42,297 nucleotides of DNA from the UHGV virus genome UHGV-1359479. One strand, 5' to 3'. The notes beneath the pieces are model-generated. The model worked only from the letters and a program-made list of their open reading frames with translations, searched no databases and was not told the DNA's origin. The translations under genes were made by a program, and so were the position numbers. This DNA comes from a virus. Below, one piece after another: positions 3,992 to 39,395 of this stretch. How positions within the stretch are numbered: the first letter of the stretch is position 1; the number at the start of each line of letters is the position of its first letter.

Positions 3992-4007
3992 TTTTGTGTT
4001 CCTCGAC

Positions 4008-4295
4008 TTAGCCGACCGTGATTATGTTATTGGCTGAAAAACGGTATTCGGCAGCATGGGCCTTGTCGGTCACCACAGCATCGATGCCGTCGAAGATCGC
4101 CTGGGATACGGCATGAGAGATGGCGGCTGCACTTATTGGGATGACACTCTTCTCCGCGTCCCACATGATGTAGTCCCTGATTCTGGCGATGAAGTTGTTG
4201 AGCACCGTCTCGTCGACGATCTCATCGTTTGGGTGCTCCTTCCTGAAGGCCTTGGCGGCATCGTCGGGGAGAGCGTAGGAAAGCATATAACGCAT
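4008..4295 (-). CDS. hypothetical protein, 95 aa, the first gene downstream of the putative PL
   Basis: ORF with an AAGAGG RBS. Confidence 0.5.
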   Translation of the reverse strand: MRYMLSYALPDDAAKAFRKEHPNDEIVDETVLNNFIARIRDYIMWDAEKSVIPISAAAISHAVSQAIFDGIDAVVTDKAHAAEYRFSANNIITVG

Positions 4296-4299
4296 GGGC

Positions 4300-4388
4300 G
4301 ATTTACCTCTTATATGTTCGTTGATTTCTTTTTATTAAAATTTAAATAAATAAGCAAGGAAAAGTTGAAGTTTTGGTAATTCGGGCAC
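4300..4388 (-). promoter_or_regulatory. putative leftward early promoter and operator region (PL/OL analogue)
   Basis: AT-rich intergenic DNA. It contains the 10-mer CCTTGCTTAT (minus sense, 4359..4350), which is also present at 5716-5725 in the cI/cro intergenic region. Confidence 0.35.
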
Positions 4389-4415
4389 AAAAAAAGGCCG
4401 ACGCTAGGCCGGCCC
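4389..4415 (-). terminator. rho-independent terminator ending the cI-moron transcript
   Basis: The GC hairpin GGGCCGGCC..GGCC is followed by a U7 run on the minus strand. It lies directly after the stop of the 4441..5067 gene. Confidence 0.5.
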
Positions 4416-4440
4416 AAAGTTTTGACGAAAAGCCTAAGGC

Positions 4441-5067
4441 TTATTTTGGACGCCCATCATAAAAATCCTGCAGGGCTCCGTCCCATACGCTCGTCGCTGA
4501 TCCCTGCGTCGTTAAGCACATCATCTCCATCTGGCCAAGCATACGATTTGCGGTTTCTCTTATCGCAGGGGGAAAGACTTCATCGTTCTCGCAAAAATAA
4601 TCAGGATGGTTCTCAACGAGGTATTCAATGCGAAAACTTTCTAGTTGATCATCTGCACGAGAATCATCATGGAATATTGTCGAATCATTAATAAGGCTAT
4701 TGTGGAGTTTTTCTTCTTTATTTCTTAAATAGTTTCTTCCAAAAATGATATATTCAAAATAGCTTTTTGCGTCATTTACAAAGTAAGAATCGATATACGG
4801 CATTTTGTATTTATTTAATGTATTTATTATTTTCTTTTTATAAATTTTCCACCAATAAAAATGACGCAGTAATTCTACAATAATTGCATTAGTTATTACA
4901 TATGAAAACACTATTTCTATAGAAAACAGAAGTATATGATATGCATCATCTGTGTGCGGCAAAATTCTAAAGTAGCTAAAGCAAAAAGAGACCAATAATA
5001 TACTAAATACTGGACCTAATAATATGCTGGCCAATAATCTTAGTGACGAAAACTTAGGCATAAACAC
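4441..5067 (-). CDS. AT-rich membrane protein, 208 aa, with two N-terminal TM helices and a roughly 140-aa soluble domain. It sits in the rexAB position downstream of cI and is a candidate superinfection-exclusion or abortive-infection protein.
   Basis: Markedly lower GC than the genome. It is co-oriented with the CI repressor and immediately downstream of it, and it has its own terminator. It shows no recognisable catalytic motif. Confidence 0.6.
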   Translation of the reverse strand: MFMPKFSSLRLLASILLGPVFSILLVSFCFSYFRILPHTDDAYHILLFSIEIVFSYVITNAIIVELLRHFYWWKIYKKKIINTLNKYKMPYIDSYFVNDAKSYFEYIIFGRNYLRNKEEKLHNSLINDSTIFHDDSRADDQLESFRIEYLVENHPDYFCENDEVFPPAIRETANRMLGQMEMMCLTTQGSATSVWDGALQDFYDGRPK

Positions 5068-6143: not shown

Positions 6144-6350
6144 ATGACCGATGACTACGAGATAGTCGACGTCTGGGAGTGTCTTGCGCCGCTCTCCATC
6201 TACGAGCGGGGCCTTGTCGTCACGGCAATAGCTGCGGTGGTGAACGGGAAGACGATGCCCCGTCTCACTGACGGAGCTGCGGAGGCCCTCGGGAAGATGT
6301 TCCCAGATGAGGATTTCTCGCAATATGTGGATAGAGGGAGGTTGCAATGA
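6144..6350 (+). CDS. hypothetical protein, 68 aa, in the cII position
   Basis: ORF with an ATGA overlap onto the following replication gene. Confidence 0.4.
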   Translation: MTDDYEIVDVWECLAPLSIYERGLVVTAIAAVVNGKTMPRLTDGAAEALGKMFPDEDFSQYVDRGRLQ

Positions 6351-7414
6351 AGCAGTGGTTCAAGCTGACGGATTCAGCCGTCATGAGTCTCAAGTGGCAG
6401 CGCATCGCCCGGAAGCTGGGTGTGTCTCCGGCCGTCGTGAGCTTCGTCTATGTGGCGGCCATGTCGAACGCATCCCAGTGCAATGACAGGGGGAGCCTGC
6501 AGGACTTCGACCCGGAAGACGTAGACTTCTACGGAAACTTCGAGGACGGGACCACATCCCGAGTCATAGATGCGCTTACAGCTGCCGGATTCATCGAGGA
6601 TGGCCGGATTGCTGGCTGGGAGGAGAGCCAGAGCCGCCCTTCTCAGGAAGAGGCGGACAGGATTCGCCTCCAGGCAGCGGAGCGCAAACGCCGTCAGAGG
6701 GCGAAGGAGCAGCCGGCTGAACAGCCCAGAGATGGTGACGCCGATGTCTGTGATGATGAGCCATGTCACGCTGTGTCCCACGATGTCACGCCATGTCACA
6801 CAACGTCACACCATGTCACGCCATGTCACGCTGTGTCCCACGATGTCACGCATACAGATCAGATCAGATCAGATCAGAACAGAACAGAAGATCTAAAACA
6901 CACCCCCCTTACCCCCCAGGGGGAGCAGGGTGTGGGTGAGGGAACTGCCGAGGATTGCTCTGACGTTCCCATGGCCGAGAGACGCCCCGTGAATACCGGT
7001 CTTCCCTCGAGGGGAGCTAATGCTTCGTGGTGGAGGGAGTTCGCCTCACTCTGGGATATCTGGCCTAACAAGCAGGGCAAGGATGCGGCATGGGCCGTGT
7101 ATCACGATCTGCGGCGCCGAAAAATCGACATGCCTCCCTTGTACGTCTTGCGTGACAAAGCATCGGCGATGATAGCCCAGGACCGGAAGTTTCTCGCAGG
7201 TTACGTTCCGGAGCTCAAGACATGGCTCAGGGAGCACCGATGGCACGATGAACCATGCCCTCCGAGGGACGTAGCCGTTCCCGGCAGAGGCAGAACCTCC
7301 AGAGAGCAGCAGATGGCCACAGATGTGGAGAGAGCGGCCGAGGCTGCCCGGCGGTTCGAGGATTTTTTTGAGATGGCCACTGATGAACCGGCGGCTGAAG
7401 GAGTGTTTGCATGA
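6347..7414 (+). CDS. replication initiator / replisome organiser A (lambda O-like), with internal iterons
   Basis: Its N-terminal domain is homologous to the paralogue at 9269..10321. Tandem DNA repeats inside the ORF encode a PCHAVSHDVT repeat. Confidence 0.65.
   Translation: MKQWFKLTDSAVMSLKWQRIARKLGVSPAVVSFVYVAAMSNASQCNDRGSLQDFDPEDVDFYGNFEDGTTSRVIDALTAAGFIEDGRIAGWEESQSRPSQEEADRIRLQAAERKRRQRAKEQPAEQPRDGDADVCDDEPCHAVSHDVTPCHTTSHHVTPCHAVSHDVTHTDQIRSDQNRTEDLKHTPLTPQGEQGVGEGTAEDCSDVPMAERRPVNTGLPSRGANASWWREFASLWDIWPNKQGKDAAWAVYHDLRRRKIDMPPLYVLRDKASAMIAQDRKFLAGYVPELKTWLREHRWHDEPCPPRDVAVPGRGRTSREQQMATDVERAAEAARRFEDFFEMATDEPAAEGVFA
6762..6850. repeat. iteron array A, about seven copies of (C/G)ATGTCACGC-like 10-11-mers
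   Basis: Direct repeats seen in the sequence, inside the initiator gene. Confidence 0.7.
6857..6893. repeat. cluster of five GATC sites within AGATC x4 and AGAAC x2 pentamer repeats, adjacent to the iterons
   Basis: The sequence reads CAGATCAGATCAGATCAGATCAGAACAGAACAGAAGATCT. Confidence 0.7.
6898..6942. repeat. conserved C6-TTA-C6-A-G5 element downstream of iteron array A
   Basis: The sequence ACACCCCCCTTACCCCCCAGGGGGAGCAGGGTGTGGGTGAGG is nearly identical at 9806-9848, although the flanking sequence has diverged. Confidence 0.55.
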
Positions 7415-7938: not shown

Positions 7939-8324
7939 ATGCTGTGCATCTCATCGGCCGACTCGGGCGCGACCCCGAGGCCTTCCACATTGGCCAGGAC
8001 ACCCTTGCCCGCTTCAACATCGCGACCGACGACGGCTACAAGTCATCTGATGGGCAGAGGGTCGAGCGAGTGACCTGGCACACCGTCACAGCCCACGGGG
8101 CCACGGCTAACTTTTGCCTCAAGTACCTTCATAAGGGCGAGCTCGTGTACGTGCAGGGGGCGTACATCTCTCGGAAGTACCGGACAAAGGACGGGAGAGA
8201 TGCCGTCGCATGGGGCGTGTCAGCATCGCGCGTGCAGTTCCTCGACGGCTCCGAACGGGGAGCCCAGAATCGGAACTGTCATGACCACCAGCAGGGAGGA
8301 TACGACGATGACTGGAGGAACTAA
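7923..8324 (+). CDS. ssb: single-stranded DNA-binding protein, copy 1
   Basis: Has an OB-fold SSB pattern (LIGRLGRDPE, ERVTWH, LHKGELVYVQG) and an acidic C-terminal tail ending DDDW. Confidence 0.8.
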   Translation: MPASLNAVHLIGRLGRDPEAFHIGQDTLARFNIATDDGYKSSDGQRVERVTWHTVTAHGATANFCLKYLHKGELVYVQGAYISRKYRTKDGRDAVAWGVSASRVQFLDGSERGAQNRNCHDHQQGGYDDDWRN

Positions 8325-8406
8325 GACTCCCACTCCCACAGAGCACGAGGAGCAGGCATCTCCAGCTATGTCATTAGACGGCGCTCATGATGAGGAAACC
8401 GAATGA
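8308..8406 (+). pseudogene. truncated remnant of a VRR-NUC gene marking a recombination junction
   Basis: The peptide MTGGTKTPTPTEHEEQAS matches the N-terminus of the intact VRR-NUC protein at 11480 (TSGKAPTPTEHEEQAA) and then diverges. Confidence 0.55.
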
Positions 8407-8962: not shown

Positions 8963-9285
8963 GTGACGAGCACGGAAGCTTCATTATGTATACCGAGTCA
9001 TGGAGTGGCATACAGCTCCTGTCAAGGGAACAGCGGGGGGGGGACCTTCTCACTGCTCTGATGGTGTTCCATGGCGCCGATGACTGCGAGATGCCGGAGA
9101 TGGATCAGGCCACGGCATGTATCTTCGAGATGGTAAAGCGGAAAAACTCTTCATCCTGTTCACGGGACGAGAGAGTCCGCGAGCAGACGCGCGAACGCGT
9201 TCGTCGGTTCAGGGCAAGGAAGAAGGCGGCCGCCGCAGGGACATCAGAGACCATGGAGGAGGCGCATCATGCCGATGGCGTATAG
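8959..9285 (+). CDS. hypothetical protein, 108 aa, containing a G9 homopolymer at 9035-9043
   Basis: ORF overlapping the upstream gene by 4 nt (ATGA). The G9 tract encodes RGG. Confidence 0.4.
   Translation: MSDEHGSFIMYTESWSGIQLLSREQRGGDLLTALMVFHGADDCEMPEMDQATACIFEMVKRKNSSSCSRDERVREQTRERVRRFRARKKAAAAGTSETMEEAHHADGV
9035..9043 (+). repeat. G9 homopolymer inside the 8959..9285 ORF
   Basis: Seen in the sequence. Confidence 0.9.
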
Positions 9286-10321
9286 CTGGTTCCGAGTCTA
9301 CACAGGGACAGTAAATGACAAAAAATGGCCACGCATTGCCCGAGATGCTGGTCAGCCTGTCGGGTGTGTCGTGTCCGTGTGGCTGGCTCTTCTGGAGAGT
9401 GCATCATCTAATATAGATCGTGGGGCAGTTGACGACTTCTGCCCTGAGGATATCGACGCCCTCTACGGGTACGATGATGGCACGACGGAGAGCATCGTAC
9501 ATGCGATGCGAGACAGGGGGCTTATCTCTCCAGAGAACCGTCTGACTGCATGGGACAAGCGTCAGAATATCCCCACGGAAGATGCCCCCGAGGACCGCAG
9601 GGCATACAAGAGGGAGTGGGCCCGCAGGAAGAGAGAGGAGAGCCGGATGGCTGATTCTCCTGCTAGTGGACAGCCTGTAGACAGCTGTAGACAGCCTGTA
9701 GACAGCTGTGGACAGCCTGTAGACAGCTGTAGACAGCCTGTAGACAGCTGTAGACACGATAAAGAGAAGATAAGAGAAGATAAGATAAGAGAAGATAATA
9801 TAAATACACCCCCCTTATCCCCCCAGGGGGAAACGGGTGTGGGTGAAGCACCTTCTCCCAAAACTTCTTCCCCAAAAGAAGAAACCCCTAAGACCGGGGA
9901 AGAACCCCAGGCCGAAGACCCGGCACAAGACGTGAAGCCGAATCTCACTCACGGCAACCCCTGCTGGAAGGAGTTCTGCTACGTCTTTTCTCTCTGGCCC
10001 GTACAACAGGGCAAGGAGAAGGCGTGGAGGGAGTACGCCTACCTCAGGGCACGTCACCTCGTCCCTGAGTCCTACGCCCTTGCGGAGATCATCGAGCGCT
10101 TCAAGGCCGAGGATCGACGATGGAAGCGCGGCTACGTGCCAATGATGGCCAACTGGCTCCACGACCGGAGATGGGACGACGTACCGGAGAAAGCGCCGGC
10201 AAAGAGCTACGCCCCGGATGAGAACGGGTCCACGCCCTACGTGGACGAGCATGACCAAGATTACACGTCTTCGGGCTTTGGTTCGATTTTTGACTCGTTG
10301 AAGGAGAAAGCAAATGCGTAA
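9269..10321 (+). CDS. replication initiator / replisome organiser B, a paralogue of 6347..7414, with its own iterons
   Basis: Homologous N- and C-terminal segments. Internal tandem repeats encode QPVDSCR repeats. Confidence 0.65.
   Translation: MPMAYSWFRVYTGTVNDKKWPRIARDAGQPVGCVVSVWLALLESASSNIDRGAVDDFCPEDIDALYGYDDGTTESIVHAMRDRGLISPENRLTAWDKRQNIPTEDAPEDRRAYKREWARRKREESRMADSPASGQPVDSCRQPVDSCGQPVDSCRQPVDSCRHDKEKIREDKIREDNINTPPLSPQGETGVGEAPSPKTSSPKEETPKTGEEPQAEDPAQDVKPNLTHGNPCWKEFCYVFSLWPVQQGKEKAWREYAYLRARHLVPESYALAEIIERFKAEDRRWKRGYVPMMANWLHDRRWDDVPEKAPAKSYAPDENGSTPYVDEHDQDYTSSGFGSIFDSLKEKANA
9668..9756. repeat. iteron array B, four copies of a roughly 21-bp CAGCCTGTAGACAGCTGTAGA unit
   Basis: Direct repeats seen in the sequence, inside the gene. 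Confidence 0.7.
9757..9805. repeat. A-rich AGATAAGAGA-type short repeats (possible DNA-unwinding element), followed by the conserved C-tract element at 9806-9848
   Basis: The sequence reads GATAAAGAGAAGATAAGAGAAGATAAGATAAGAGAAGATAATATAAAT. Confidence 0.5.
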
Positions 10322-11108: not shown

Positions 11109-11499
11109 CAACGTCACCCTCATCGGCCTCCTCGGTCGTGACCCTGAGGAGGTGCATGCAGGACAGAGCCGCTTCGCACGCCTCTCCGTGGCCACGGATG
11201 ACGGATACCGTGACCAGAACGGCCAGAAGGTGGAGCGTACCACCTGGCACTCCGTGGCTGTGAGCGGGAAGACGGCGGATTTCGTGCTCAGGTATCTGCA
11301 CAAGGGAAGTCAGGTCCTCGTGGAGGGCCGGTATCTGTCACGTAAGTACCAGACCAAGGACGGCCGAGACGCCGTGTCCTGGTACGTGCAGGCGCAGCGG
11401 GTGCAGTCCCTCGACTCCGCCCACCACGACGGACAGCAGGGCCAGAGACAGCAGGGGCACCAGCAGGGAGGCGGTTACGATGAGTCGTGGAAGTACTAG
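11095..11499 (+). CDS. ssb: single-stranded DNA-binding protein, copy 2
   Basis: Paralogue of 7923..8324, with an acidic C-terminal tail. Confidence 0.8.
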   Translation: MASLNNVTLIGLLGRDPEEVHAGQSRFARLSVATDDGYRDQNGQKVERTTWHSVAVSGKTADFVLRYLHKGSQVLVEGRYLSRKYQTKDGRDAVSWYVQAQRVQSLDSAHHDGQQGQRQQGHQQGGGYDESWKY

Positions 11500-11878
11500 C
11501 GGGAAGGCCCCCACCCCCACCGAGCACGAGGAGCAGGCCGCTCTCATCACATGGTGGAACATGTACGCTCAGGCGCGGCATATGCCGAACTTCCTGCTTA
11601 TGGCCATCCCCAACGGCGGCCACCGCACGACAGTGACAGGCGCAAGGCTCCATGCCGAGGGTGTGAGGGCCGGTATCCCAGACCTCTTCCTCGCTGTCGC
11701 CAGTGGGGAGTGGCACGGCCTCTGGATCGAAATGAAGCGCCGGAGAGGTGGCTTCCTGTCCGACCATCAGAGAACGGCTCTTCTGGCCCTGAAGCTCGAG
11801 GGATACTCCACGGCCGTATGCTACGGCTGGGATGAGGCCAGAGAAGCCATCGTAGATTATCTGGGGGACGAGAGATGA
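11480..11878 (+). CDS. VRR-NUC domain nuclease
   Basis: Shows TEHEEQAALI...IPNGG...GIPDL...IEMK...Q, the VRR-NUC signature. Confidence 0.65.
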   Translation: MSRGSTSGKAPTPTEHEEQAALITWWNMYAQARHMPNFLLMAIPNGGHRTTVTGARLHAEGVRAGIPDLFLAVASGEWHGLWIEMKRRRGGFLSDHQRTALLALKLEGYSTAVCYGWDEAREAIVDYLGDER

Positions 11879-17054: not shown

Positions 17055-17505
17055 GGCTGGGGAGCTAGAAAGATGCCTCTCTGGCGGCAGAGCGGCGAAA
17101 GCTCATCCCGCCCCCAAGGTTCTTCAGAAAACAGGCCGCGCGCTATGGAAAAATATAGTGGCGGCGTACCCGGACGATTATTTCAGGGCCGGGGACTGGC
17201 CGCTCCTGCAGTCGTACTGCCAGGAATTTGAGCGCCACGAGGAGGCGCAGAAGCATCTTCTCGAGGAGGGCGCCGTTATCCCCACAGCCAGCGGCGGTAT
17301 GAGACGGTCTCCGTGGCATGACGTGCTTGTGGCGTCCATCAACGCCATGACGGCCATCGCCACGAAGCTCCGTCTGTGCGCCAATTCCCGGGTAGACAGG
17401 AAGGTCAATGGACTCGGGAACGCCAATGTCGCGAAAGAGAAGGGCCGTTCGGGGCTTATGTTTGGTGACTTCCCTGATAAGTCCGACAGGGCCAGCGTGC
17501 AGTGA
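17038..17505 (+). CDS. terminase small subunit, P27 family
   Basis: A GAGGAGGAG RBS precedes it. Its conserved segments resemble P27-family TerS. Confidence 0.6.
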   Translation: MGRRGKAGELERCLSGGRAAKAHPAPKVLQKTGRALWKNIVAAYPDDYFRAGDWPLLQSYCQEFERHEEAQKHLLEEGAVIPTASGGMRRSPWHDVLVASINAMTAIATKLRLCANSRVDRKVNGLGNANVAKEKGRSGLMFGDFPDKSDRASVQ

Positions 17506-19490
17506 TGGACAGGGCGGACAGAATAATCGCCTTCATCGAGACACTGAAAGCCCCTGACGGCATGGATGTGGGGCAGCCTATCGTCCTGCGTCCGTGGCAG
17601 AAGGATATCCTGCGTCAGGTGTATGGCCCTGTCGGTCCTGACGGGCGCCGTATATGCAGGCAGGCCATCCTTTCGGTCGGGCGGAAGAACGGGAAAGGTC
17701 TATCCTTGGATACGCCTATTCCGACACCGTCTGGATGGACGACCATGGGCGAGGTGAGCGTCGGCGACGTGCTTTATGACGAGCAGGGCAACGAATGCCA
17801 TGTGACATTCGTCAGCGAGATACACCACATCGACTGCTACAAGTTTGTCTTCTCCAATGGCGAGGAGATAGTCTGCGACGGCGACCACAGATGGGCATTC
17901 CAACAGGCCGACGGTTCCATGCCAGTCATGGTGGCGAGAGACTTGTGGCGTGGCTTTGCCTTCGGCGGCGCTCTTCCTTCGGGATTCCTCCCGAACAGGG
18001 ACGTCACGCTGTCCTGCATCTGGCAGTGCCTGTCCGTCCCAACAAAGTGCATCCAGGTGGACAGTCATAATTCGTTGTTCCTGTGCGGGAAGACAATGCT
18101 CCCGACTCATAACACCGCCCTTGTGGCCGGGCTGTGTCTTGCCCACCTCTGCGGGCCGGAAGCTATCAGAAACGGCCAGCTCTACTCAGTGGCCTTTGAC
18201 CGCGAGCAGGCCGCCATCCTGTTCAAGTATATGGCGGCCATGGTGTACGCTGATGACGAGCTCTCCGCACGCCTCAATGTTGTGGAATCGAGGAAACGTA
18301 TCCTCGACCCCATATCCGGCTCCGAGTATCAGGCCCTTTCAGCCGAGACACGAGGGAAGCACGGCAAGTCAAGCTCGTTCATTGTGTTCGATGAGCTGGC
18401 GCAGTTTGGGGCCGACCGTGAGCTCTATGATGTCATGATGACCTCGCGCGGCGCCCATGCAGAGCCCATGGTGTGGGTTATCTCTACGCAGGCGGCCTCG
18501 GATACGGCCGTACTCTCCGAGCTCATCGACTACGGGGAGAAGGTCAACCGCGGAGAGATAGATGACCCTAAGACAAGGTGTTTCTGCTTTACGGTCCCGA
18601 TGACCGATGACCCGTGGGACGAGGCCAACTGGAAGAAGTCAAACCCGGCACTGGGGGACTTCCGCTCCCTCGATGAGATGAGAGAGACGGCCGAAAGGGC
18701 GAAGCGGATCCCCTCGGCCGAGGCGGCATTCAGAAATCTTTACCTAAATCAGAGGGTGGATGGCGCGGCGCATTTCATTACGCCTGCAGTTTGGAAGCAT
18801 AACGGCGGCGAACCTGACCTATCCCTCTTCGAGGATCTTCCCGTCTATGCCGGCCTTGACCTGTCTGCCAAAAACGACCTCACGGCGCTGGTGCTGACAT
18901 GCAGGGACGGGACGGGTCCCTGGCATGTCCTCCCGTATTTCTGGACACCAAAAGAGGGGCTTGTGGACAGGGCCGAAAGGGACCGTACTCCATACGACGT
19001 GTGGGTGAAACAGGGCTACCTCTATACGACACCCGGGCGGACGGTAGACTATGGCTTTGTCGCTCAGGAGATCAAAAAGCTCATGGGCCGGATGCACATA
19101 GCCGGACTGAAGTTCGACAGGTGGAGGATTGACGACATGGTGCGGGAGCTCCGTGACGTGGGCGTCGAGGCCTATGTCGACGGCAAGGAAGAGGCGTATC
19201 CCGACGGCCTCAGGATGATCCCGCACGGGCAGGGTTTCCGTGACATGAATCCGGCCGTGGAGGCCCTCGAGGACTATCTGGCCAACGGGAAGATCCGTCA
19301 TGGCATGCATCCGGTGCTCACGATGTGCGCAAGCAATGTCCGTGTACAGCAGGACCCATCAGGGAACAGGAAGTTCGATAAGATAAAATCGACGGGACGA
19401 ATCGACGGTATTGTTGCTCTCGCTATGGCTCTCAACGGGGCAGTCGGAGGGGAGCCTGAAAGAACAGAATTTTTCGCGGAGGCATGGTAA
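17502..19490 (+). CDS. terminase large subunit, interrupted by a 139-aa mini-intein in the Walker A P-loop
   Basis: Splicing would give GRKNGK|TALVAGL. Walker B is FIVFDELAQF. The nuclease domain lies at the C-terminus. Confidence 0.85.
   Translation: MMDRADRIIAFIETLKAPDGMDVGQPIVLRPWQKDILRQVYGPVGPDGRRICRQAILSVGRKNGKGLSLDTPIPTPSGWTTMGEVSVGDVLYDEQGNECHVTFVSEIHHIDCYKFVFSNGEEIVCDGDHRWAFQQADGSMPVMVARDLWRGFAFGGALPSGFLPNRDVTLSCIWQCLSVPTKCIQVDSHNSLFLCGKTMLPTHNTALVAGLCLAHLCGPEAIRNGQLYSVAFDREQAAILFKYMAAMVYADDELSARLNVVESRKRILDPISGSEYQALSAETRGKHGKSSSFIVFDELAQFGADRELYDVMMTSRGAHAEPMVWVISTQAASDTAVLSELIDYGEKVNRGEIDDPKTRCFCFTVPMTDDPWDEANWKKSNPALGDFRSLDEMRETAERAKRIPSAEAAFRNLYLNQRVDGAAHFITPAVWKHNGGEPDLSLFEDLPVYAGLDLSAKNDLTALVLTCRDGTGPWHVLPYFWTPKEGLVDRAERDRTPYDVWVKQGYLYTTPGRTVDYGFVAQEIKKLMGRMHIAGLKFDRWRIDDMVRELRDVGVEAYVDGKEEAYPDGLRMIPHGQGFRDMNPAVEALEDYLANGKIRHGMHPVLTMCASNVRVQQDPSGNRKFDKIKSTGRIDGIVALAMALNGAVGGEPERTEFFAEAW
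17697..18113 (+). other. mini-intein (Hint domain, no homing endonuclease) inside TerL. It has an atypical Gly at position 1 and ends in HN, followed by a +1 Thr.
   Basis: Block A is GLSLDTPIPTPSGW (canonical is C/S at position 1). The C-terminal block is VDSHNSLFLCGKTMLPTHN|T. Confidence 0.65.
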
Positions 19491-33400: not shown

Positions 33401-35302
33401 TCTGTACAGATTTATCCTCCGGCAGCGCCTGACCTTGAAGGCTCTATCATCGACAACCTGCTGCATGTAGTGTGGCAGGACTGCTCCACGTCATGGCCGG
33501 TGCGAAGGTACTTTGTCCACGATATCAGCAAGGACACTACGGACGAGGTTCTTACTACACGATGGCCCATGCCGACACGCGTGCCAGGAACATATGAATT
33601 TGCTGTATATGCAGAAGATATTTTCAGAAATAAGGGCGAAGTGACGACAGAAAGCATTGTTGTTCCCGACATTGGAACACCTGTGCCCAAAGTGGAAGTT
33701 GACGGCACGCAGTGCGTCATCGTCTGGGAGCAGGTCACAAGTCCTTTCGAGCTTTCCTACTACGAGATAAAAGACGCAGACGGCAGAACACTGGATAAGA
33801 TAAAGTCCAACTCCTACCGTTTTACGGCTCCGGCCAGTGGCGTCCTTGGCTACAGAGTGAGGGCAGTAGACATCGCCGGGAACATGTCGCCATGGGGTGA
33901 GGTGTCCTTTGACCTTACAGGGCCGGCTTCTCCCCAGCCCGTCATAACCGTAGTTGAGGACAGAGTGGAGGTATCCTGGGCCGTGCCGCTGTCTATGCTG
34001 CCTATCACCGGGTATGAGATTATCCGCCAGTGGGATGAAGCGCGCGAGGACGGCACTGTAGAGACGAAAGAGTATGATTACGGCATGATCCTTGGTACCA
34101 AGGTGACGGAGACCAAGATGATAACCGGAACACATACTTTCCTTGTCCGTGCCGTAGACTCTTCGGGAAACAAAAGCGAGTGGGGGACGGCTGATATCCT
34201 TGTCCGCGCTCCGGGTAAGGTCACTTTCTCCGGATGCTATCCGCTCGACAACAACGCGATGGTGTACTGGACAGAAGGAAAGCAGGGCACTTTCCCCGTG
34301 GAGCGATACCTTTTCGGCTACGTGGACGAGGACGGGTACGATATACAGCTTGGCTACACGTCCGCGCTTTTCACAACCATTGTGGAGACCAAAGGCGGCG
34401 ATTATACCTATTGGGTTGTGCCGGTTGATACCGCAGGGAACAGAGGCGACAGGGAAATAGTCACGTTGTCTATCACCCAGCCTCCGGAGTTCCGGCTGTT
34501 CTATGATGTGGACTCCACTTTCTCCGGAACCAAAGAAAACATGCTTTTGGACGGGAAAGGCGCCATGGTTGGCCCGTACACGGATCAGACGTGGAATGAA
34601 AATTGCGCTATCGTAGCCAGCCGTCTTGGCGTGGATGCGGATGCGATTACGTGGCAGCTTAAGACAGACAATAACTTCAACGGGTGGCTCTCTCCGGAGA
34701 TGCTTCCCGGTACGGACGGCGGCTACACTGATACTACGGGAACATACACCAGTGCGGTTGGCACCTACACGGAAATTTTTGACGTTGGGACGGATATCCC
34801 GTCCTGCCGCGTGGTCGTAACACCGACTATAGAAGTCATTGACGGCGATCCGGTAGCTTCGTGTAGGATTGAGACGTCCCTTGACGGCACGGAGTACACG
34901 ATGGCTGCGGAGGACGGCTATGTGGGTATCACGGATAGGTTCCGTTATGTCCGCGTGACGCTTAAGTGGTCTGGCGGCGGCGTGGCGGTGAAGAACCTGC
35001 ACCTCCAGTGCGCCATAAAGAAGCGCCAGGACTTTGGCAGCGTGTACGTCAGGGCTGACGACAACGGCGAGGGCTGGGAAGATGACCCCATGCAGATGGG
35101 CAAGCAGGTCAACTTCAATGTAGATTTCATTGATGTTGAAGAGCCTATCCATGTATTCATCTCTGATAACGCAACGGGAAAGACGCCAGTTGTGATATTC
35201 AAAGGCGAAAACAAGGCTCCTACGTATTTCAGAGTTGTTGTATTTGACGTCAACGGGAAGCGTACTGACGGCCTTGTACAGTGGCGTGCGCAGGGAGTAT
35301 AA
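30407..35302 (+). CDS. fused gpI-like (N-terminal ~210 aa, Gly-rich and hydrophobic) and gpJ-like central tail fibre / host-specificity protein
   Basis: The I-like C-terminal hydrophobic stretch follows a G8 peptide linker. The J-like N-terminus is LSGAKDSEAAQKIWSIDGAQ. Fibronectin-III-like repeats follow. Confidence 0.7.
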   Translation: MKVSCNLPAIPDKKVFPLKPVAVRVRPSLMRMDVFTAKVMPGMNVLEGLRLACRQTGTPIGIVRMARVFINGTPVPRKDWSRTYLRQGDYVSVAAPLAGGGGGGGGKNPMRMILSIAVIAVAAAATWWVGGAGGWSFGILPTLHLGAVAGAVAGGLVLMGGMLLVNALCPVSTPKLSGAKDSEAAQKIWSIDGAQNKTDPYGPVPTVLGRVRFAPRFASQSYSVLSGNDQYVRYLFVASTGDCTVSNPRLGDTNLWNYQGAEWRVHRNWSGGEALTWFGSAATSESFSLAMKNSVGWQTRTTARDCTHAQLILIFDNGLKHIDSEGNGSAVSVDVECRYRAVGSSDWTTSGYHYEGCTINPMRRSIDLWLPAGQYEIGLRRVTPDSDSESTRETTRDTFTWSALQSFRAKPAVVGDSRHPMTLIELSLKATEQLNGNIDEFNVECCSLAPVPNGDTWNWVETANPASLFMRVMTGTDISKPCAWDSLDLSACKNFYAWCKKMGWKYNALLTSKTNAGEVVHNILSSGRGSYALLNGHGVIYDDPDAPVVDMLTQRNSWNFQSKKSLVFEKVHGLRMRFLNEQKDYQEDERVVYDDGYNEGNATNVIEFEQDGVTNPDLIWKHGRLRLAEMRLRPETYTVTVEAESITLRRGDKVRVLHDATFWGITSGAITKVNLNGDKLIESIELDDWCPMDADKAYGVRVTNYKATDAYYSVLTIPNTESRVLTFSTPQSPDTTGISVGDIVGFGVTSSVGAECIVLSVTPSENFCATITLCDAATNIYQAISGAIPAWNSQITAATRYQVGRPNPPSILGIVSDEMVLRRNADGSLSPQMSVTFLLPDQPNGVHAASVLMSVRKADSEDQWDTYMSNSIFGDTCSILDPSVEEGVYYDVKGQITTTSGLISDFSTTVRHKVIGKTNPPPDVTGFTATLEAPAGIRLNWDEITVLDLDHYTITGLNGGDTIATTMICPAPNTVGTVVYTAVAVDTGGRKSKTPAKASVQIYPPAAPDLEGSIIDNLLHVVWQDCSTSWPVRRYFVHDISKDTTDEVLTTRWPMPTRVPGTYEFAVYAEDIFRNKGEVTTESIVVPDIGTPVPKVEVDGTQCVIVWEQVTSPFELSYYEIKDADGRTLDKIKSNSYRFTAPASGVLGYRVRAVDIAGNMSPWGEVSFDLTGPASPQPVITVVEDRVEVSWAVPLSMLPITGYEIIRQWDEAREDGTVETKEYDYGMILGTKVTETKMITGTHTFLVRAVDSSGNKSEWGTADILVRAPGKVTFSGCYPLDNNAMVYWTEGKQGTFPVERYLFGYVDEDGYDIQLGYTSALFTTIVETKGGDYTYWVVPVDTAGNRGDREIVTLSITQPPEFRLFYDVDSTFSGTKENMLLDGKGAMVGPYTDQTWNENCAIVASRLGVDADAITWQLKTDNNFNGWLSPEMLPGTDGGYTDTTGTYTSAVGTYTEIFDVGTDIPSCRVVVTPTIEVIDGDPVASCRIETSLDGTEYTMAAEDGYVGITDRFRYVRVTLKWSGGGVAVKNLHLQCAIKKRQDFGSVYVRADDNGEGWEDDPMQMGKQVNFNVDFIDVEEPIHVFISDNATGKTPVVIFKGENKAPTYFRVVVFDVNGKRTDGLVQWRAQGV

Positions 35303-35308
35303 ACTGCC

Positions 35309-35878
35309 ATGGCAGATAAAAAATGCGATATTGTAATATCCACGTCCGGAAAGTGGCGTGAAGATCAGGTTAATACAGAGGCCTTGCGCTGGAACTGGAG
35401 CAAACAGACCTTCGAGCGGTGGAACGGCTCGGAATGGGAATTGCTTGCGCCGACTTTTCAGAAAGGAGAACTGACAGAAAGTCCTCCGGAAGGGGATGTA
35501 TCATATAAAATAGCAACAACGGCGTGGATTGCCGATTACGTGAAAGCCGCCATACAGGCTTTTGTGGACACATCCGGTCTTATCCCATGGATGACTCTTG
35601 ATGAAGACCAGGCCGTCTACGCTGAAAAAGTCTTCTCCACGGGCATTGTGCTTCCGCTTCCTGACGACGATGACAACACAGACGCCATGGCGTCTACGCA
35701 GTGGGTACAGGCGCGCAAGGCCGAAATGGACACAGCAGACAGAAATGCGGATGCGAAAATTGCGGATATTACGTCAAGACAGACGGCACTTGATAATAAT
35801 GACAAAGCAATACAGGATGACATCAACACGGCTTATATTGTCATTCTGGCCGAATATCAGAAGGCCGGAGGAGAATAG
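35309..35878 (+). CDS. tail-fibre-locus protein, 189 aa
   Basis: C-terminal IQDDINTAYIVILAEYQKAGG is paralogous to the 35885..36196 gene. Confidence 0.5.
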   Translation: MADKKCDIVISTSGKWREDQVNTEALRWNWSKQTFERWNGSEWELLAPTFQKGELTESPPEGDVSYKIATTAWIADYVKAAIQAFVDTSGLIPWMTLDEDQAVYAEKVFSTGIVLPLPDDDDNTDAMASTQWVQARKAEMDTADRNADAKIADITSRQTALDNNDKAIQDDINTAYIVILAEYQKAGGE

Positions 35879-35884
35879 CAACCA

Positions 35885-36196
35885 ATGGCAGATATCACTA
35901 CATACGTGACGCTGAACACGCCGCAGGAAATAACGGGGAAGAAGACTTTTACAAAGCCTGTCACTATTCCCGCGCCGGCGGATGACGACAACTCCACGGC
36001 TCCGGCTACCACGGCTTTTTGTCAGAAACTTCTATCGCCGCTTAAAGACAAGGATAGCGCGATATCTAATCAGTTAGCCACACTGGAAGAGAACACGCAA
36101 AGTCTGGAGGCGGCTGATACTTCTTTGCAGGATGATATCAACGCCGCCTATGACGCCTTGGCGGCAGAGTACGTGAAGAACGGAGGTACCCTGTAA
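35885..36196 (+). CDS. tail-fibre N-terminal-like protein, 103 aa
   Basis: EITGKKTFTKPVTIPA motif. Paralogous C-terminus. Confidence 0.5.
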   Translation: MADITTYVTLNTPQEITGKKTFTKPVTIPAPADDDNSTAPATTAFCQKLLSPLKDKDSAISNQLATLEENTQSLEAADTSLQDDINAAYDALAAEYVKNGGTL

Positions 36197-36644
36197 TGGC
36201 TACGACTAATCACGATTTGCTTGAAACGATCCAGATGGCGATAAAATTGAGCAAGCTTGAACAGCATCCTGTGGGCAGCCTCTGGGCTACCATGAGTGAC
36301 GATAACCCCGCCGATATTTTCGGGGGGGGTGGAAGAAGTTAGGTGAGTGCAGGGTGTTACAGTGCGCCGATGACGACCATCCGGCGGGGACTACAGAAGA
36401 AGCGGGACTGCCGGATATACAGGGCTACCTCGGCGACAGCTACGGAGAGTCCGGCCTTTTCTGGAAAGTGGACGGCGCTTTTACCGCGAGGAAGACCGGA
36501 ACCCGCTTCCCAAGGTTAAGCGACAGCAACACGAGTTATACAGAAATAGATTTTAAAGCTTCTTCTTATAATCCAATTTACGGCAATTCAAATACCGTTC
36601 AGATGAAATCAATCTATTGTAACATATGGCAAAGGATTAAATAA
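36196..36644 (+). CDS. phase-variable gene copy 1. A 48-aa N-terminal ORF (36196-36342) ends just after a G8 tract (36322-36329). The downstream frame is open over 36306-36644. A one-G insertion would fuse them into a ~149-aa protein.
   Basis: Frames were checked by hand. The N-terminus MATTNHDL and the C-terminus ...TVQMKSIYCNIWQRIK are paralogous to copy 2. Confidence 0.55.
36322..36329 (+). repeat. G8 homopolymer, a slippage switch
   Basis: Seen in the sequence. Confidence 0.9.
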
Positions 36645-37115
36645 TGGCAACTACGAATCATGATTTACAGGAAACGATTGAATTGGCAGTAAAACTTGCC
36701 GTTCAGCAGGCAAAACTTGATATGTGTCCCATTGGTAAAATTTGGCCCACCTTCGGTGATGAAAACCCTGCTGATGTAGTGGGGGGGGGTATGGGAGAAA
36801 CTGAAGACGTATCATCTGCAGTGCTCTGACGATAAGCACACTGCTGGTGATATTATAGAGGCTGGACTGCCTAACATAAAAAGTGAGGGAGGCCCCCACG
36901 TGTACCAATACACACCTGGTGGCGGTTCGGCTAGTCTTAATTCAGGATGCCTTACATGGAGCAGCAACGGCGGCGGCGTCAACACTGACAACTATTCAAA
37001 CACGGGTTCGGGTAAGTTTTATATAGACGCATCAAAATCAAACGCAATTTATGGCAAATCAGATACAGTACAGCCATATAGTATTGTGCTGAATGTATGG
37101 AGAAGAATTGAATGA
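36644..37115 (+). CDS. phase-variable gene copy 2. A 61-aa N-terminal ORF (36644-36829) contains a G9 tract (36781-36789). The downstream frame is open over 36780-37115. A one-G deletion would fuse them into a ~157-aa protein.
   Basis: Frames were checked by hand. It is paralogous to copy 1 (WxKL...LQCxDDxHxAG...EAGLPxI ... VWRRIE). Confidence 0.55.
36781..36789 (+). repeat. G9 homopolymer, a slippage switch
   Basis: Seen in the sequence. Confidence 0.9.
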
Positions 37116-37570
37116 AAGATATAACTGATACAATTAATCTACTTATAAAGCATATTGCGAACATCGACTCTAAAACCGTACACCTTGACGGTGCAGAGAC
37201 TGTAACAGGCGACAAGGCCTTCACGGGTGGCGTTACTGTGGGCGGGTATGAGCCGGAATGCGTAGTGGATAAAGGCGAGGGCTACATACGGTATAGTAGT
37301 GGGTTGCAAATGTGTTTTGGCGATGTAGCAGCGATAAAAGCGGCAAATGTTAACAACGCAAATGTTACAATTGCATACGCAAAACCTTTTACCCGCGTTG
37401 CATCTGTGCAGTTAACAAGCAAACAATTCAATTATTACAGTAGTTTTGCACATAGAGTTGAGACAGATACAAACAATATTAATTGTGATTGGTGGACAGA
37501 TAACTCCAACATTATGGCGGTAGCTATAACCTGCTACGGGTTTTATCTGGCTATCGGTTTTTGGAAATAA
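37112..37570 (+). CDS. AT-rich tail-fibre-locus protein, 152 aa
   Basis: The LDGAETVTGDKAFTGGVTV motif is shared with other fibre-locus proteins. Confidence 0.5.
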   Translation: MKDITDTINLLIKHIANIDSKTVHLDGAETVTGDKAFTGGVTVGGYEPECVVDKGEGYIRYSSGLQMCFGDVAAIKAANVNNANVTIAYAKPFTRVASVQLTSKQFNYYSSFAHRVETDTNNINCDWWTDNSNIMAVAITCYGFYLAIGFWK

Positions 37571-37583
37571 AGAGGTATCAGTC

Positions 37584-39395
37584 ATGGCGGCGGATTTCGC
37601 GAAACCGAATCTTGGTAACAAAATAAAAACAGACGTCCCGGGTATTTTTGATATTCTCCAGACACTTGCCACAGGCGCGCTGTCCGGGACGATAAACACC
37701 CCAACCGGTGCGCTTAATTTTTATGTAGACGGCAACAATAACTTAAAAATCCAGAGACTGGACGCTAGCGGGGCGTGGGTAGATATACCCCAGCTCAAAA
37801 ATGATGCAGATACGGTAGACGGATACCACGCTTCCACCAGCACCACCAAGAGCACAATCCCCGTCAGGGACAGCAACGGCAATCTTCCAGGCTCCATCAC
37901 GGGTAACGCGCCCACGGCCACCAAGGCGCAGCAGCTTACGGATGTAAACCCCGTAGCCATGGGCGGAACGGGAGCGTCCACGGCCGCTGACGCACGAACG
38001 AACCTTGGCGTGCCGCCTATCAGCCACGCGTCCGTAGCCACCACCTATGGCGTCTCCACAGATAAGGCCTATGGCCACGCGAAGGCTACGGGCACGACGC
38101 CCAAAAAAGACAGTCTGGCAGGAACAGTGGGGAACGAGACGTCCACCTTCGCCCGAGGGGATCATCAGCATCCCCGTGCAGTCTTCTTCGGGACATGCAC
38201 GACGGCACTCGATACGCCCGCCAAGGTAGTATCCATCCCCGACTTCATTCCGTCTGAAGGGGCCTTCGCCCTCATCAGGTACATCCCCGAGGCCACCCGC
38301 ACGGTGACGACCAAGGCGGAAGACGGCACAGAGACGACTTCCACTCTGACGCTGAAGGCGACATCAGACCCGCTCACGCTCTCGGTGAATGCCGGGACAG
38401 CGCTCCCCATCCGGACATCCGGAGGGCAGGTCATCGGCACGGAGCTTATCTCCGGAGGCACGTATCTTTTTGTGTACGCGGGGGACGCGTACCTCTACGC
38501 AGGAGGAACCAAGCTCGCGAATGAACCGGCTGGGGCAGTTCTCTCCGATCTGACGAAGGGGACTGCTCCGGATACGCTACGGGCGCCATCCATCGCCGTG
38601 TACGACAAGACCGGAGCGGAGATCGGAACGCTGACCCTCAAAGTCGGCACAGATAACTCCACATCCCTGTCCCTAAACGTCCACCCCGGCACCGAGGCCG
38701 GCTCCCCCACACAGACTGGCACGATCGAGGTCGGCTACGACGCCTCCGGTTCAGTGTACACAGCGGCCCCGACCCCTGCCACGCAAGACAAATCTACGAA
38801 GATCGCCACCACCGAGTATGTCAATGACAACGCCTGCATGCTATACGGCGATCAGACCATCGCCGGAGCCAAAACTTACGCGTCCCCGCTGACCTGCACG
38901 GATCTCATCTCGGGAAAAAGACTCACCCTTAACAACGGCGTAAACAGCAACCTGGATTTCTGCGCTAACAACGTGACTTCCGGCGGCGCTTATCTTGCAG
39001 GCAGTTCCATGGCCAGTAATACATGGAAACAGATTGCCCTGCTGGAGGATGCTGAGTCCGTGGCCACATCGAAAGCCGCGGCATGGTCGCGCGACAGACA
39101 GATGGCTCCGGACGGAACCAAGTGGGGCTTCGATTCGGATACGACCTACACGGCGCCGAATAACGGATTTATCAGGATCGAGGACGTGAATCGGCATAAT
39201 ACCGTGAACACCTATGTGCTGAACATCAATGGCGGCGTAGCGATGCGCGTTACAGCGTCAGGGTATGGATCGGGCGGCCAGCATGGCGGGATCGACGTGT
39301 GCTACCCCATACGTGGCGGATGGACGTACAGCGTATGGCGCGAAGCTGGTGACAGCTGGCCTAACTGTATGGAGTTTATTCGATGCTACTTCTAG
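37584..39395 (+). CDS. tail fibre protein, 603 aa
   Basis: Thr/Gly/Ala-rich beta-structure repeats in the fibre locus, upstream of the assembly chaperone. Confidence 0.7.
   Translation: MAADFAKPNLGNKIKTDVPGIFDILQTLATGALSGTINTPTGALNFYVDGNNNLKIQRLDASGAWVDIPQLKNDADTVDGYHASTSTTKSTIPVRDSNGNLPGSITGNAPTATKAQQLTDVNPVAMGGTGASTAADARTNLGVPPISHASVATTYGVSTDKAYGHAKATGTTPKKDSLAGTVGNETSTFARGDHQHPRAVFFGTCTTALDTPAKVVSIPDFIPSEGAFALIRYIPEATRTVTTKAEDGTETTSTLTLKATSDPLTLSVNAGTALPIRTSGGQVIGTELISGGTYLFVYAGDAYLYAGGTKLANEPAGAVLSDLTKGTAPDTLRAPSIAVYDKTGAEIGTLTLKVGTDNSTSLSLNVHPGTEAGSPTQTGTIEVGYDASGSVYTAAPTPATQDKSTKIATTEYVNDNACMLYGDQTIAGAKTYASPLTCTDLISGKRLTLNNGVNSNLDFCANNVTSGGAYLAGSSMASNTWKQIALLEDAESVATSKAAAWSRDRQMAPDGTKWGFDSDTTYTAPNNGFIRIEDVNRHNTVNTYVLNINGGVAMRVTASGYGSGGQHGGIDVCYPIRGGWTYSVWREAGDSWPNCMEFIRCYF

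Follow-up and report, generated by a model that had tools for sequence, protein, structure and literature searches.

A class 3 mini-intein with glycine at position 1 splits the P-loop of a phage large terminase subunit

The 42,297-nt virus genome UHGV-1359479 (the window, by which we mean the whole stretch of DNA analysed) contains an open reading frame (ORF), 17502/17505-19490 (+), that encodes a 661-residue precursor of the large terminase subunit (TerL) with an intein inserted in its P-loop. The insert is very probably a class 3 mini-intein that splits the TerL of a Desulfovibrio-associated HK97-like siphophage and splices via Cys118. By every computationally testable criterion it belongs to class 3, and this is directly supported by homology, fold, a full set of catalytic residues, precisely fixed edges, signs of purifying selection and the existence of an allele that has no intein; its splicing chemistry, and its actual splicing, we infer from characterised homologues. 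The element starts with glycine. An initial inspection of the DNA (the sequence-only reading) had offered three explanations for this residue: a non-canonical splicing route, an inactive TerL in a defective phage, or a sequencing error. It was right about the first, which would be the already described class 3 mechanism (PMC2807308, PMC4031507), but the other two do not hold. A glycine start is expected for class 3 inteins and is neither a defect nor a base-call error.

The two ends of the ORF match the Pfam families TerL_ATPase and TerL_nuclease (PF03354, 1.3e-15; PF20441, 6.9e-28), and the product has the N-terminal P-loop ATPase and C-terminal RNase H-like nuclease domains of a Terminase_1 or HK97-type TerL. 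It is 47-48% identical overall to the TerLs of HK75 and vB_SBP33, with the conserved residues kept throughout both domains; for the C-extein, the identity to the proteins of Burkholderia phage vB_SBP33 and phage HK75 is 45-47%. Intein-free phage TerLs (vB_SBP33, HK75, mEp390 and others, found by tblastn in phage genomes) align up to RKNGK on the N-terminal side of the insert, and their matches begin again at precursor residue 204/205. The Hint-only insert of 417 nt separates the Walker A Lys of TerL from its Thr and breaks the TerL_ATPase match in two. It comprises residues 65-203 of the precursor, counted from the ATG at 17505, which overlaps the TerS stop codon (TGATG). The Walker A segment GRKNGK (17679-17696) closes the N-extein with AAA (Lys) as its last codon and is directly followed by the Gly codon, as the sequence-only reading had stated. 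The reported C-terminal HN and +1 Thr were also correct: T137-H138-N139 precedes Thr204 (ACC, 18114-18116), which doubles as the Walker A Thr.

Scans of GTDB genomes and IMG/VR found intein-free alleles of the same gene. Four of them (our loci L006, L010, L011 and L033, of which L006 comes from UMGS847, a metagenome-assembled genome of an uncultured Desulfovibrio sp.) share 99% amino acid identity with the window TerL and are 139 residues shorter, and a fifth (L012) is 94% identical. All five read SVGRKNGK^TALVAGLCLAHL (^ marks the junction). Conceptual excision of the insert gives GRKNGK^TALVAGL, that is, GRKNGKTALVAGL, and the four closest alleles carry this sequence, so that removal of the in-frame insertion restores the host protein and the junction predicted by the sequence-only reading occurs in nature. 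The gap in the DNA of the intein-free alleles is exactly 417 nt (...GGGAAA^ACCGCC...), and the edges of the insert cannot slide by even one base, because its terminal bases (G and C) differ from the flanking ones (A and A). Alternative boundaries that would place Cys or Ser at position 1, a check that had been proposed at the outset, were rejected, since this gap fixes both edges.

Class 3 inteins are defined by a WCT triplet (Trp B:12, Cys F:4 and Thr G:5), a first residue that is not a nucleophile, and Ser or Thr at position +1 (PMC2807308, PMC5050341; numbering according to PMC5222942); Cys at +1 is a rare exception. The insert combines Gly1 with Trp66 at B:12, Cys118 at F:4 in a block F that reads TKCIQVD, Thr at G:5 followed by His and Asn, and Thr+1. 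The sequence-only reading had overlooked Trp66, Cys118 and the diagnostic Thr of THN. It had recorded DGDH in block B, and this tetrapeptide is indeed present (D61-G-D-H64, codons 17877-17888, in the context CDGDHRW, with His64 at B:10), but it is not the oddity it was taken for: a DxxH block B has been described for class 3 inteins (PMC12245125, PMC6195587), where it is the norm, and Asp occupies B:7 in 168 of 190 relatives of the insert.

The other known categories do not accommodate the insert. A class 1 intein would carry Cys, Ser or Thr where independent assemblies have Gly1. Class 2 inteins are orthologues of Mja KlbA with Ala1, Cys+1, Ser G:6 and Asp F:4 (PMC4031507), whereas the window intein has Gly1, Thr+1, His G:6 and Cys F:4. 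It is not a bacterial intein-like domain either, as Thr+1 is present, the insertion falls exactly in the Walker A motif, and an intein-free allele exists.

The three best phmmer matches of the 139 residues among all PDB chains are class 3 DnaB inteins, from M. smegmatis (6bs8, E = 1.5e-22) and M. chimaera (6rix, E = 7.9e-21, and 6riy). In the alignments with 6bs8 and 6rix, the W, C and THN of the known inteins coincide residue for residue with Trp66, Cys118 and Thr137-His138-Asn139. A further homologue is the class 3 prototype, the MP-Be intein of mycobacteriophage Bethlehem (phmmer E = 8e-14). An AlphaFold2 model of the intein with five flanking residues on each side reached a predicted local distance difference test (pLDDT) value of 87.9 and a predicted template modelling (TM) score of 0.83, the linker region being weaker (pLDDT ~66 for model residues 91-110). 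When this model was compared with the PDB using Foldseek, the seven best matches were class 3 DnaB intein chains (TM 0.88-0.90, root-mean-square deviation 2.2-2.7 Å), and class 1 inteins scored far below them. Inteins and further domains of the Hint fold head the 43 matches at E<=1e-3, which places the insert in this fold.

How common Gly1 is among related inteins was determined from a phmmer search run exhaustively against 1.84 billion representative proteins, used instead of a word-indexed protein search that yielded just five fragments. It gave 7080 hits at E<=1e-3, and residues were counted in the best 150 of these 7080 proteins, which provided 191 intein N-modules and 167 complete inteins. 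Residue 1 was Ala in 91 N-modules, Gly in 72, Pro in 11, Leu in 6 and Cys or Ser in 3; it was non-nucleophilic in 188 of the 191. By these counts glycine, with 38% of the N-modules in the 150 best-scoring proteins, is the second commonest first residue in the family. The remaining class 3 residues are nearly invariant: His B:10 in 190 and Trp B:12 in 188 of 190 relatives, and among the 167 complete inteins Cys F:4 in all, Thr G:5 in 166, the following His in 163 and the terminal Asn in all, with Thr (109), Ser (53) or Cys (4) at +1, Thr and Ser together accounting for 162. All 66 complete Gly1 inteins retain the F:4 Cys, and 65 of them have the whole WCT triplet.

The Gly1 precedents that the sequence-only reading had asked for exist, both in these 72 N-modules and in cultured phages, where natural Gly1 class 3 inteins interrupt the Cas4 exonucleases of mycobacteriophage Traft412 and Streptomyces phage Frankenweenie. 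Terminase relatives that read RKNGK^G at the N-terminal junction and HN^T or HN^S at the C-terminal one include our protein matches P0020, P0029, P0030, P0034, P0036 and P0068. Cultured phages with a class 3 intein at the same P-loop site start with Ala1 (ECD7 gp17 of E. coli, Vibrio phage 489E54-1 and mycobacteriophage Pharsalus) or with Asp1 (Clavibacter phage CN1A). Characterised class 3 inteins in the literature searched start with Pro or Ala, so the prevalence of Gly1 exceeds its share in that experimental literature, which covers Ala1 and Pro1 members.

Lys precedes Gly1 in 71 of the 72 N-modules (relatives P0006-P0153). The Gly1 members divide into those in terminase P-loops (RKNGK^G) and those in Cas4/RecB nuclease motifs (DYK^G ... 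HN^TGK), and many of the top-scoring relatives hold two class 3 inteins per protein. A 2025 preprint reported that the class 3 inteins of TerL and Cas4 have a common ancestry, with which this split of Gly1 sites agrees. The Lys-preceded Gly1 class 3 inteins may form a sub-clade that moves between GK^T sites in TerL and DxK^T sites in Cas4.

The protein of 661 residues occurs in identical form on four 20-50 kb contigs of a public collection. The same mini-intein, with Gly1 kept, is found in an IMG/VR contig (L008), where 4 of 417 nt differ between the two inteins (window 17697-18113 versus L008:3193-3609; 1.0%) and 71 of 1566 nt differ between the TerL exteins (4.5%). This disparity suggests that an intein which no longer encodes an endonuclease has recently moved laterally or recombined. 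A third allele (L013), whose TerL is 83% identical to that of the window, carries at the same site a 355-residue intein with Gly1 and the WCT triplet, in which LAGLIDADG_3 and Hom_end domains stand where the window intein has a linker of ~39 residues. Among related TerL loci, 3 of 33 contain an intein (L008, L013 and L014). The full-length intein of L013 and this patchy occupancy indicate that the insertion site is polymorphic and that the window element descends from a homing intein but has lost the endonuclease. In closely related gut Desulfovibrio phages this one site is thus found empty, occupied by the mini-intein (in two TerL backgrounds) or occupied by a full-length intein with LAGLIDADG domains, a natural set for following intein gain and endonuclease loss.

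Two further observations concern the same locus. An ENA contig of 2605 nt (P0001) holds a TerL fragment that is 98% identical to the window up to about intein residue 92 (GFAFGGA) and continues with the unrelated sequence DAQRSLLEDEGIEFDDDGKINLDIYGWIG, which could be a different insertion at the linker/endonuclease position or a chimeric assembly. Antisense homing endonucleases have been reported for actinophage inteins (2025 preprint), and an antisense ORF of 148 aa (17700-18146, -) coincides almost entirely with the window intein. It has no Pfam or PHROG match; we rejected it as an antisense homing endonuclease, and it is probably a chance ORF in GC-rich DNA.

The class 3 assignment leads to a specific prediction of how TerL would mature. 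In the precursor the Walker A motif is split (GRKNGK / T), ATP would not be bound properly, and the protein is presumably inactive as an ATPase, by analogy with the P-loop inteins of PMC6195587. After translation the intein would fold and splice in four steps. Cys118, aided by His64 and Trp66, would attack the Lys(-1)-Gly1 bond and take over the N-extein as a thioester, giving the block F branched intermediate; the N-extein would then pass to Thr+1 by transesterification (block G branched intermediate); Asn139 would cyclise with the aid of His138, Thr137 positioning the THN turn, and release the intein; and an O-N acyl shift would finally yield GRKNGKTALVAGL, an active TerL with an intact Walker A motif. 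This succession of F:4 Cys thioester, transfer to +1, Asn cyclisation and O-N shift is the established class 3 route (PMC2807308, PMC4031507, PMC5222942). Mutation of the F:4 Cys abolishes all reactions of MP-Be (C320A/S; PMC2807308), as does C118A in the M. smegmatis intein (PMC6195587), and class 3 TerL inteins of mycobacteriophages splice efficiently in reporter assays (PMC5050341). The sequence-only reading was correct in that Gly1 is incapable of an N-S acyl shift, but the class 3 route needs no nucleophile at residue 1; Gly1 would be a mere spectator at the scissile bond.

Conservation of the gene is consistent with such a function. All seven catalytic positions of the intein are intact, and in the splicing blocks (105 codons, window versus L013) non-synonymous divergence (dN) is 0.166 and synonymous divergence (dS) 0.775, a dN/dS of 0.21. 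The exteins differ from those of the intein-free L006 at 69 codons synonymously and at 6 non-synonymously, and from those of the intein-containing L008 at 56 and 10, respectively. This predominance of synonymous differences indicates strong purifying selection on TerL in this lineage.

A number of observations weigh against this reading, and we consider them together with the alternatives. Pfam and NCBIfam scans of the 139-residue insert found no intein or Hint family even at E<=1; since these profiles miss the domain, the classification rests on PDB and pairwise homology, on the fold and on the positions of the motifs. The window intein does not conserve the block F His of Msm DnaBi1, which is also missing in the inteins of ECD7, the Vibrio phage and L008. 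The literature searched, the coverage of which was incomplete, yielded no natural Gly1 class 3 intein that had been tested by experiment. In AceL NrdHF, a distant class 3 split intein, the A1G mutation abolished trans-splicing (PMC7891396), which means that Gly1 is not neutral in every class 3 scaffold and that its compatibility depends on the scaffold; for the sub-family of the window intein we infer such compatibility from prevalence, conservation and selection. Neither an integrase nor an attachment site was identified in the window, so that the element may be incomplete. The last two points, together with Gly1 in a mini-intein that lacks a homing endonuclease, could be taken as signs of a decaying, splicing-dead intein, with a non-functional TerL in a defective or helper-dependent prophage, which the sequence-only reading had also considered. 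We regard this as improbable. Against it stand the seven intact catalytic positions, the dN/dS of the splicing blocks and the 69 synonymous against 6 non-synonymous differences in the exteins; the same intein allele sits in a second TerL background with 4.5% divergence (L008); Gly1 coexists with the complete triplet in 65 of 66 relatives and with the F:4 Cys in 66 of 66; and the module of lysis, HNH, TerS, TerL, portal, protease, capsid, tape-measure and tail-J genes is complete.

Still less probable is a class 2-like route, in which Thr+1 would attack the Lys-Gly1 amide directly and Cys118 would be structural only. The insert does share with KlbA inteins the lack of an N-terminal nucleophile, but Ala1, Cys+1, Ser G:6 and Asp F:4 are all missing from it, the hydroxyl of Thr is a poor nucleophile for direct attack on an amide, and the F:4 Cys is absolutely required in the homologues (MP-Be C320A/S, Msm C118A). 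A sequencing or assembly error that hides a true TGT codon (Cys1), and with it a class 1 intein, is the least probable of all and effectively refuted. GGT is, as had been pointed out, one transversion away from TGT; however, Gly1 recurs in independent assemblies and in diverged relatives. The identical protein stands on four contigs, and GGT/Gly1 is also found in L008, L013 and P0001-P0005, which come from different samples. The diverged relatives L013 and P0002-P0004 read RKNGK^GL(A/S)LDTP, the intein N-part of P0002-P0004 being 68-80% identical to that of the window, Gly1 is present in 38% of the related N-modules, and the WCT triplet, as independent evidence, predicts that residue 1 is not a nucleophile. 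The assignment to class 3 with splicing via Cys118 would leave the current understanding of protein splicing unchanged; this non-canonical route is textbook intein biology. In practice, when Cys or Ser is absent from position 1 of an intein, the Trp-Cys-Thr triplet should be looked for before the gene is called broken or the base is doubted. Since Pfam and NCBIfam miss the intein, annotation pipelines will list a terminase of excessive length whose ATPase domain is split.

Besides Cys118 and Cys47, the window intein has five other cysteines. The counterpart of Cys47, Cys48 of Msm DnaBi1, is essential and a disulfide partner of the catalytic Cys, and was called non-conserved in 2018 (PMC6195587); among relatives of the window intein this position is Cys in 156 of 196, and it is invariant in 20 aligned mini-inteins. 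In M. smegmatis DnaBi1 the equivalent pair forms a disulfide that blocks splicing (PMC6195587). By analogy, a Cys47/Cys118 disulfide might make DNA packaging redox-gated in this phage, the host of which is a sulfate reducer and strict anaerobe, an idea to which we give only a slim chance. If it were true, oxygen or reactive oxygen species would reversibly hold TerL as the inactive precursor and delay packaging until reducing conditions return.

Table 1. Coordinates of the TerL gene and of its intein in the window
Feature	Position	Strand	Basis or remark
TerL precursor gene	17505..19490	+	661 aa and stop; the public gene call gives the identical protein
N-extein, 64 aa	17505..17696	+	Aligns with intein-free TerLs up to the invariant R-K-N-G-K; junction is that of the intein-free alleles
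Class 3 mini-intein, 139 aa, without homing endonuclease	17697..18113	+	PDB homology, AlphaFold2/Foldseek, 417-nt gap in intein-free alleles
Block A, GLSLDTPIPTPSGW, with non-nucleophilic Gly1 (GGT 17697-17699)	17697..17738	+	Sequence reading
Cys47	17835..17837	+	Aligns with Cys48 of M. smegmatis DnaBi1
Block B, D61-G-D-H64-R-W66 (DxxH variant)	17877..17894	+	Aligned to H65/W67 of Msm DnaBi1
Linker between blocks B and F, ~39 aa	17895..18011	+	Relatives have a LAGLIDADG homing endonuclease here
Cys118 (TGC), F:4, predicted initiating nucleophile	18048..18050	+	Aligned to Cys118 (Msm DnaBi1) and Cys124 (MchDnaB1)
End of block G, Thr137 (G:5, Thr of WCT)-His138-Asn139	18105..18113	+	Sequence reading; context PTHN
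C-extein	18114..19487	+	Rest of the ATPase domain and the nuclease domain; TerL invariants retained

The late region of the window is a complete one of the HK97 type, with genes for endolysin, LysC, holin, HNH, TerS, TerL, portal, S78 protease, major capsid protein, tape measure and tail J, and the early region includes RecT, a PD-(D/E)XK nuclease, a CI-like S24 repressor, a DnaC-like ATPase and a Dam-like methylase. A search of the window for prophage ends found no tRNA and no long terminal direct repeat. Nothing points to a defective element, though neither its ends nor an integrase were identified.

Two iteron-like arrays are found in the early part of the window, at 6760-6851 and 9666-9770, inside two unannotated ORFs (6347-7414 and 9269-10321) neither of which has a Pfam match. 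One array consists of about nine CCATGTCACGC-like units with a period of 10 nt and the other of GTAGACAGC(C)T units with a period of 21 nt. After each array there is an element of ~95 nt (6852-6946 and 9759-9853, 71% similar) with a GATC/A-rich run and a C6/G5 palindrome, and a further duplication lies downstream (8286-8362 versus 11458-11543). The arrangement looks like two paralogous modules of the lambda-O style, in which the initiator gene contains the origin; a DnaC/IstB-like ATPase gene follows the second module. Against a GC content of ~0.58 overall, patches of low GC content occur at 4001-5000 (0.41) and 35000-38000 (0.47-0.50). The ORFs 4441-5067 (-), beside the CI-like repressor gene, and 37584-39395 (+), after the tail J gene, match no family, and the ORFs of these patches may be morons or host-range cargo.

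Among known inteins, M. smegmatis DnaBi1 (6BS8) and M. chimaera DnaB1 (6RIX/6RIY) most resemble the window intein in sequence and fold. Like it, they are Hint-only elements of 139-145 residues that follow the Walker A Lys in a P-loop ATPase, and they share with it DxxH-x-W, Cys F:4, THN with Ser or Thr at +1, and Cys47/48 (E 1e-22, ~41% identity, TM of the model ~0.9). The host is a replicative helicase instead of a phage terminase, the residues at 1 and +1 are Ala and Ser instead of Gly and Thr, and the block F His of DnaBi1 is not found at the same position in the window intein. The MP-Be DnaB intein of Bethlehem, the mechanism of which was dissected experimentally (PMC2807308), agrees with the window intein in a host of the TerL_1 family, the WCT triplet, Thr+1 and a non-nucleophilic residue 1. 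It differs in Pro1, in its length of 341 residues with a LAGLIDADG endonuclease, and in its location at another TerL site (VSQDQ^...^TKNTF) outside the P-loop. In the Bethlehem record it lies in a large gene just upstream of the portal gene and reads VSQDQ^P1-LALNTEVPTPSGWTT...THN^TKNTF; Kelley et al. (2016) class this host gene as TerL1-c (PMC5050341). In the GenBank record of Bethlehem the gene (L045; AY500153.1, 7260-9971) is annotated merely as hypothetical gp11, and several RefSeq copies of intein-bearing cluster E mycobacteriophage terminases are labelled 'exonuclease'.

The exact GK^intein^T/S insertion point of the window is used in Pharsalus (cluster E, TerL1-a type), ECD7 gp17, Klebsiella phage RaK2, Vibrio phage 489E54-1 and CN1A, and Lys^Thr insertion in the P-loop of phage terminases is 'classic' according to Kelley et al. 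(PMC5050341). These P-loop terminase inteins of cultured phages share the blocks KCIxVD and PTHN with the window intein; they start with Ala1 or Asp1 and are mostly full-length with an endonuclease, whereas the window has a Gly1 mini-intein. The Cas4/RecB inteins of the plaque-forming phages Traft412 (gp72) and Frankenweenie (gp79) have the same K^GLxLDTP...THN^T pattern, Gly1 and an intact WCT triplet. Unlike the window intein, they are full-length and are inserted after the catalytic Lys of the PD-(D/E)XK motif.

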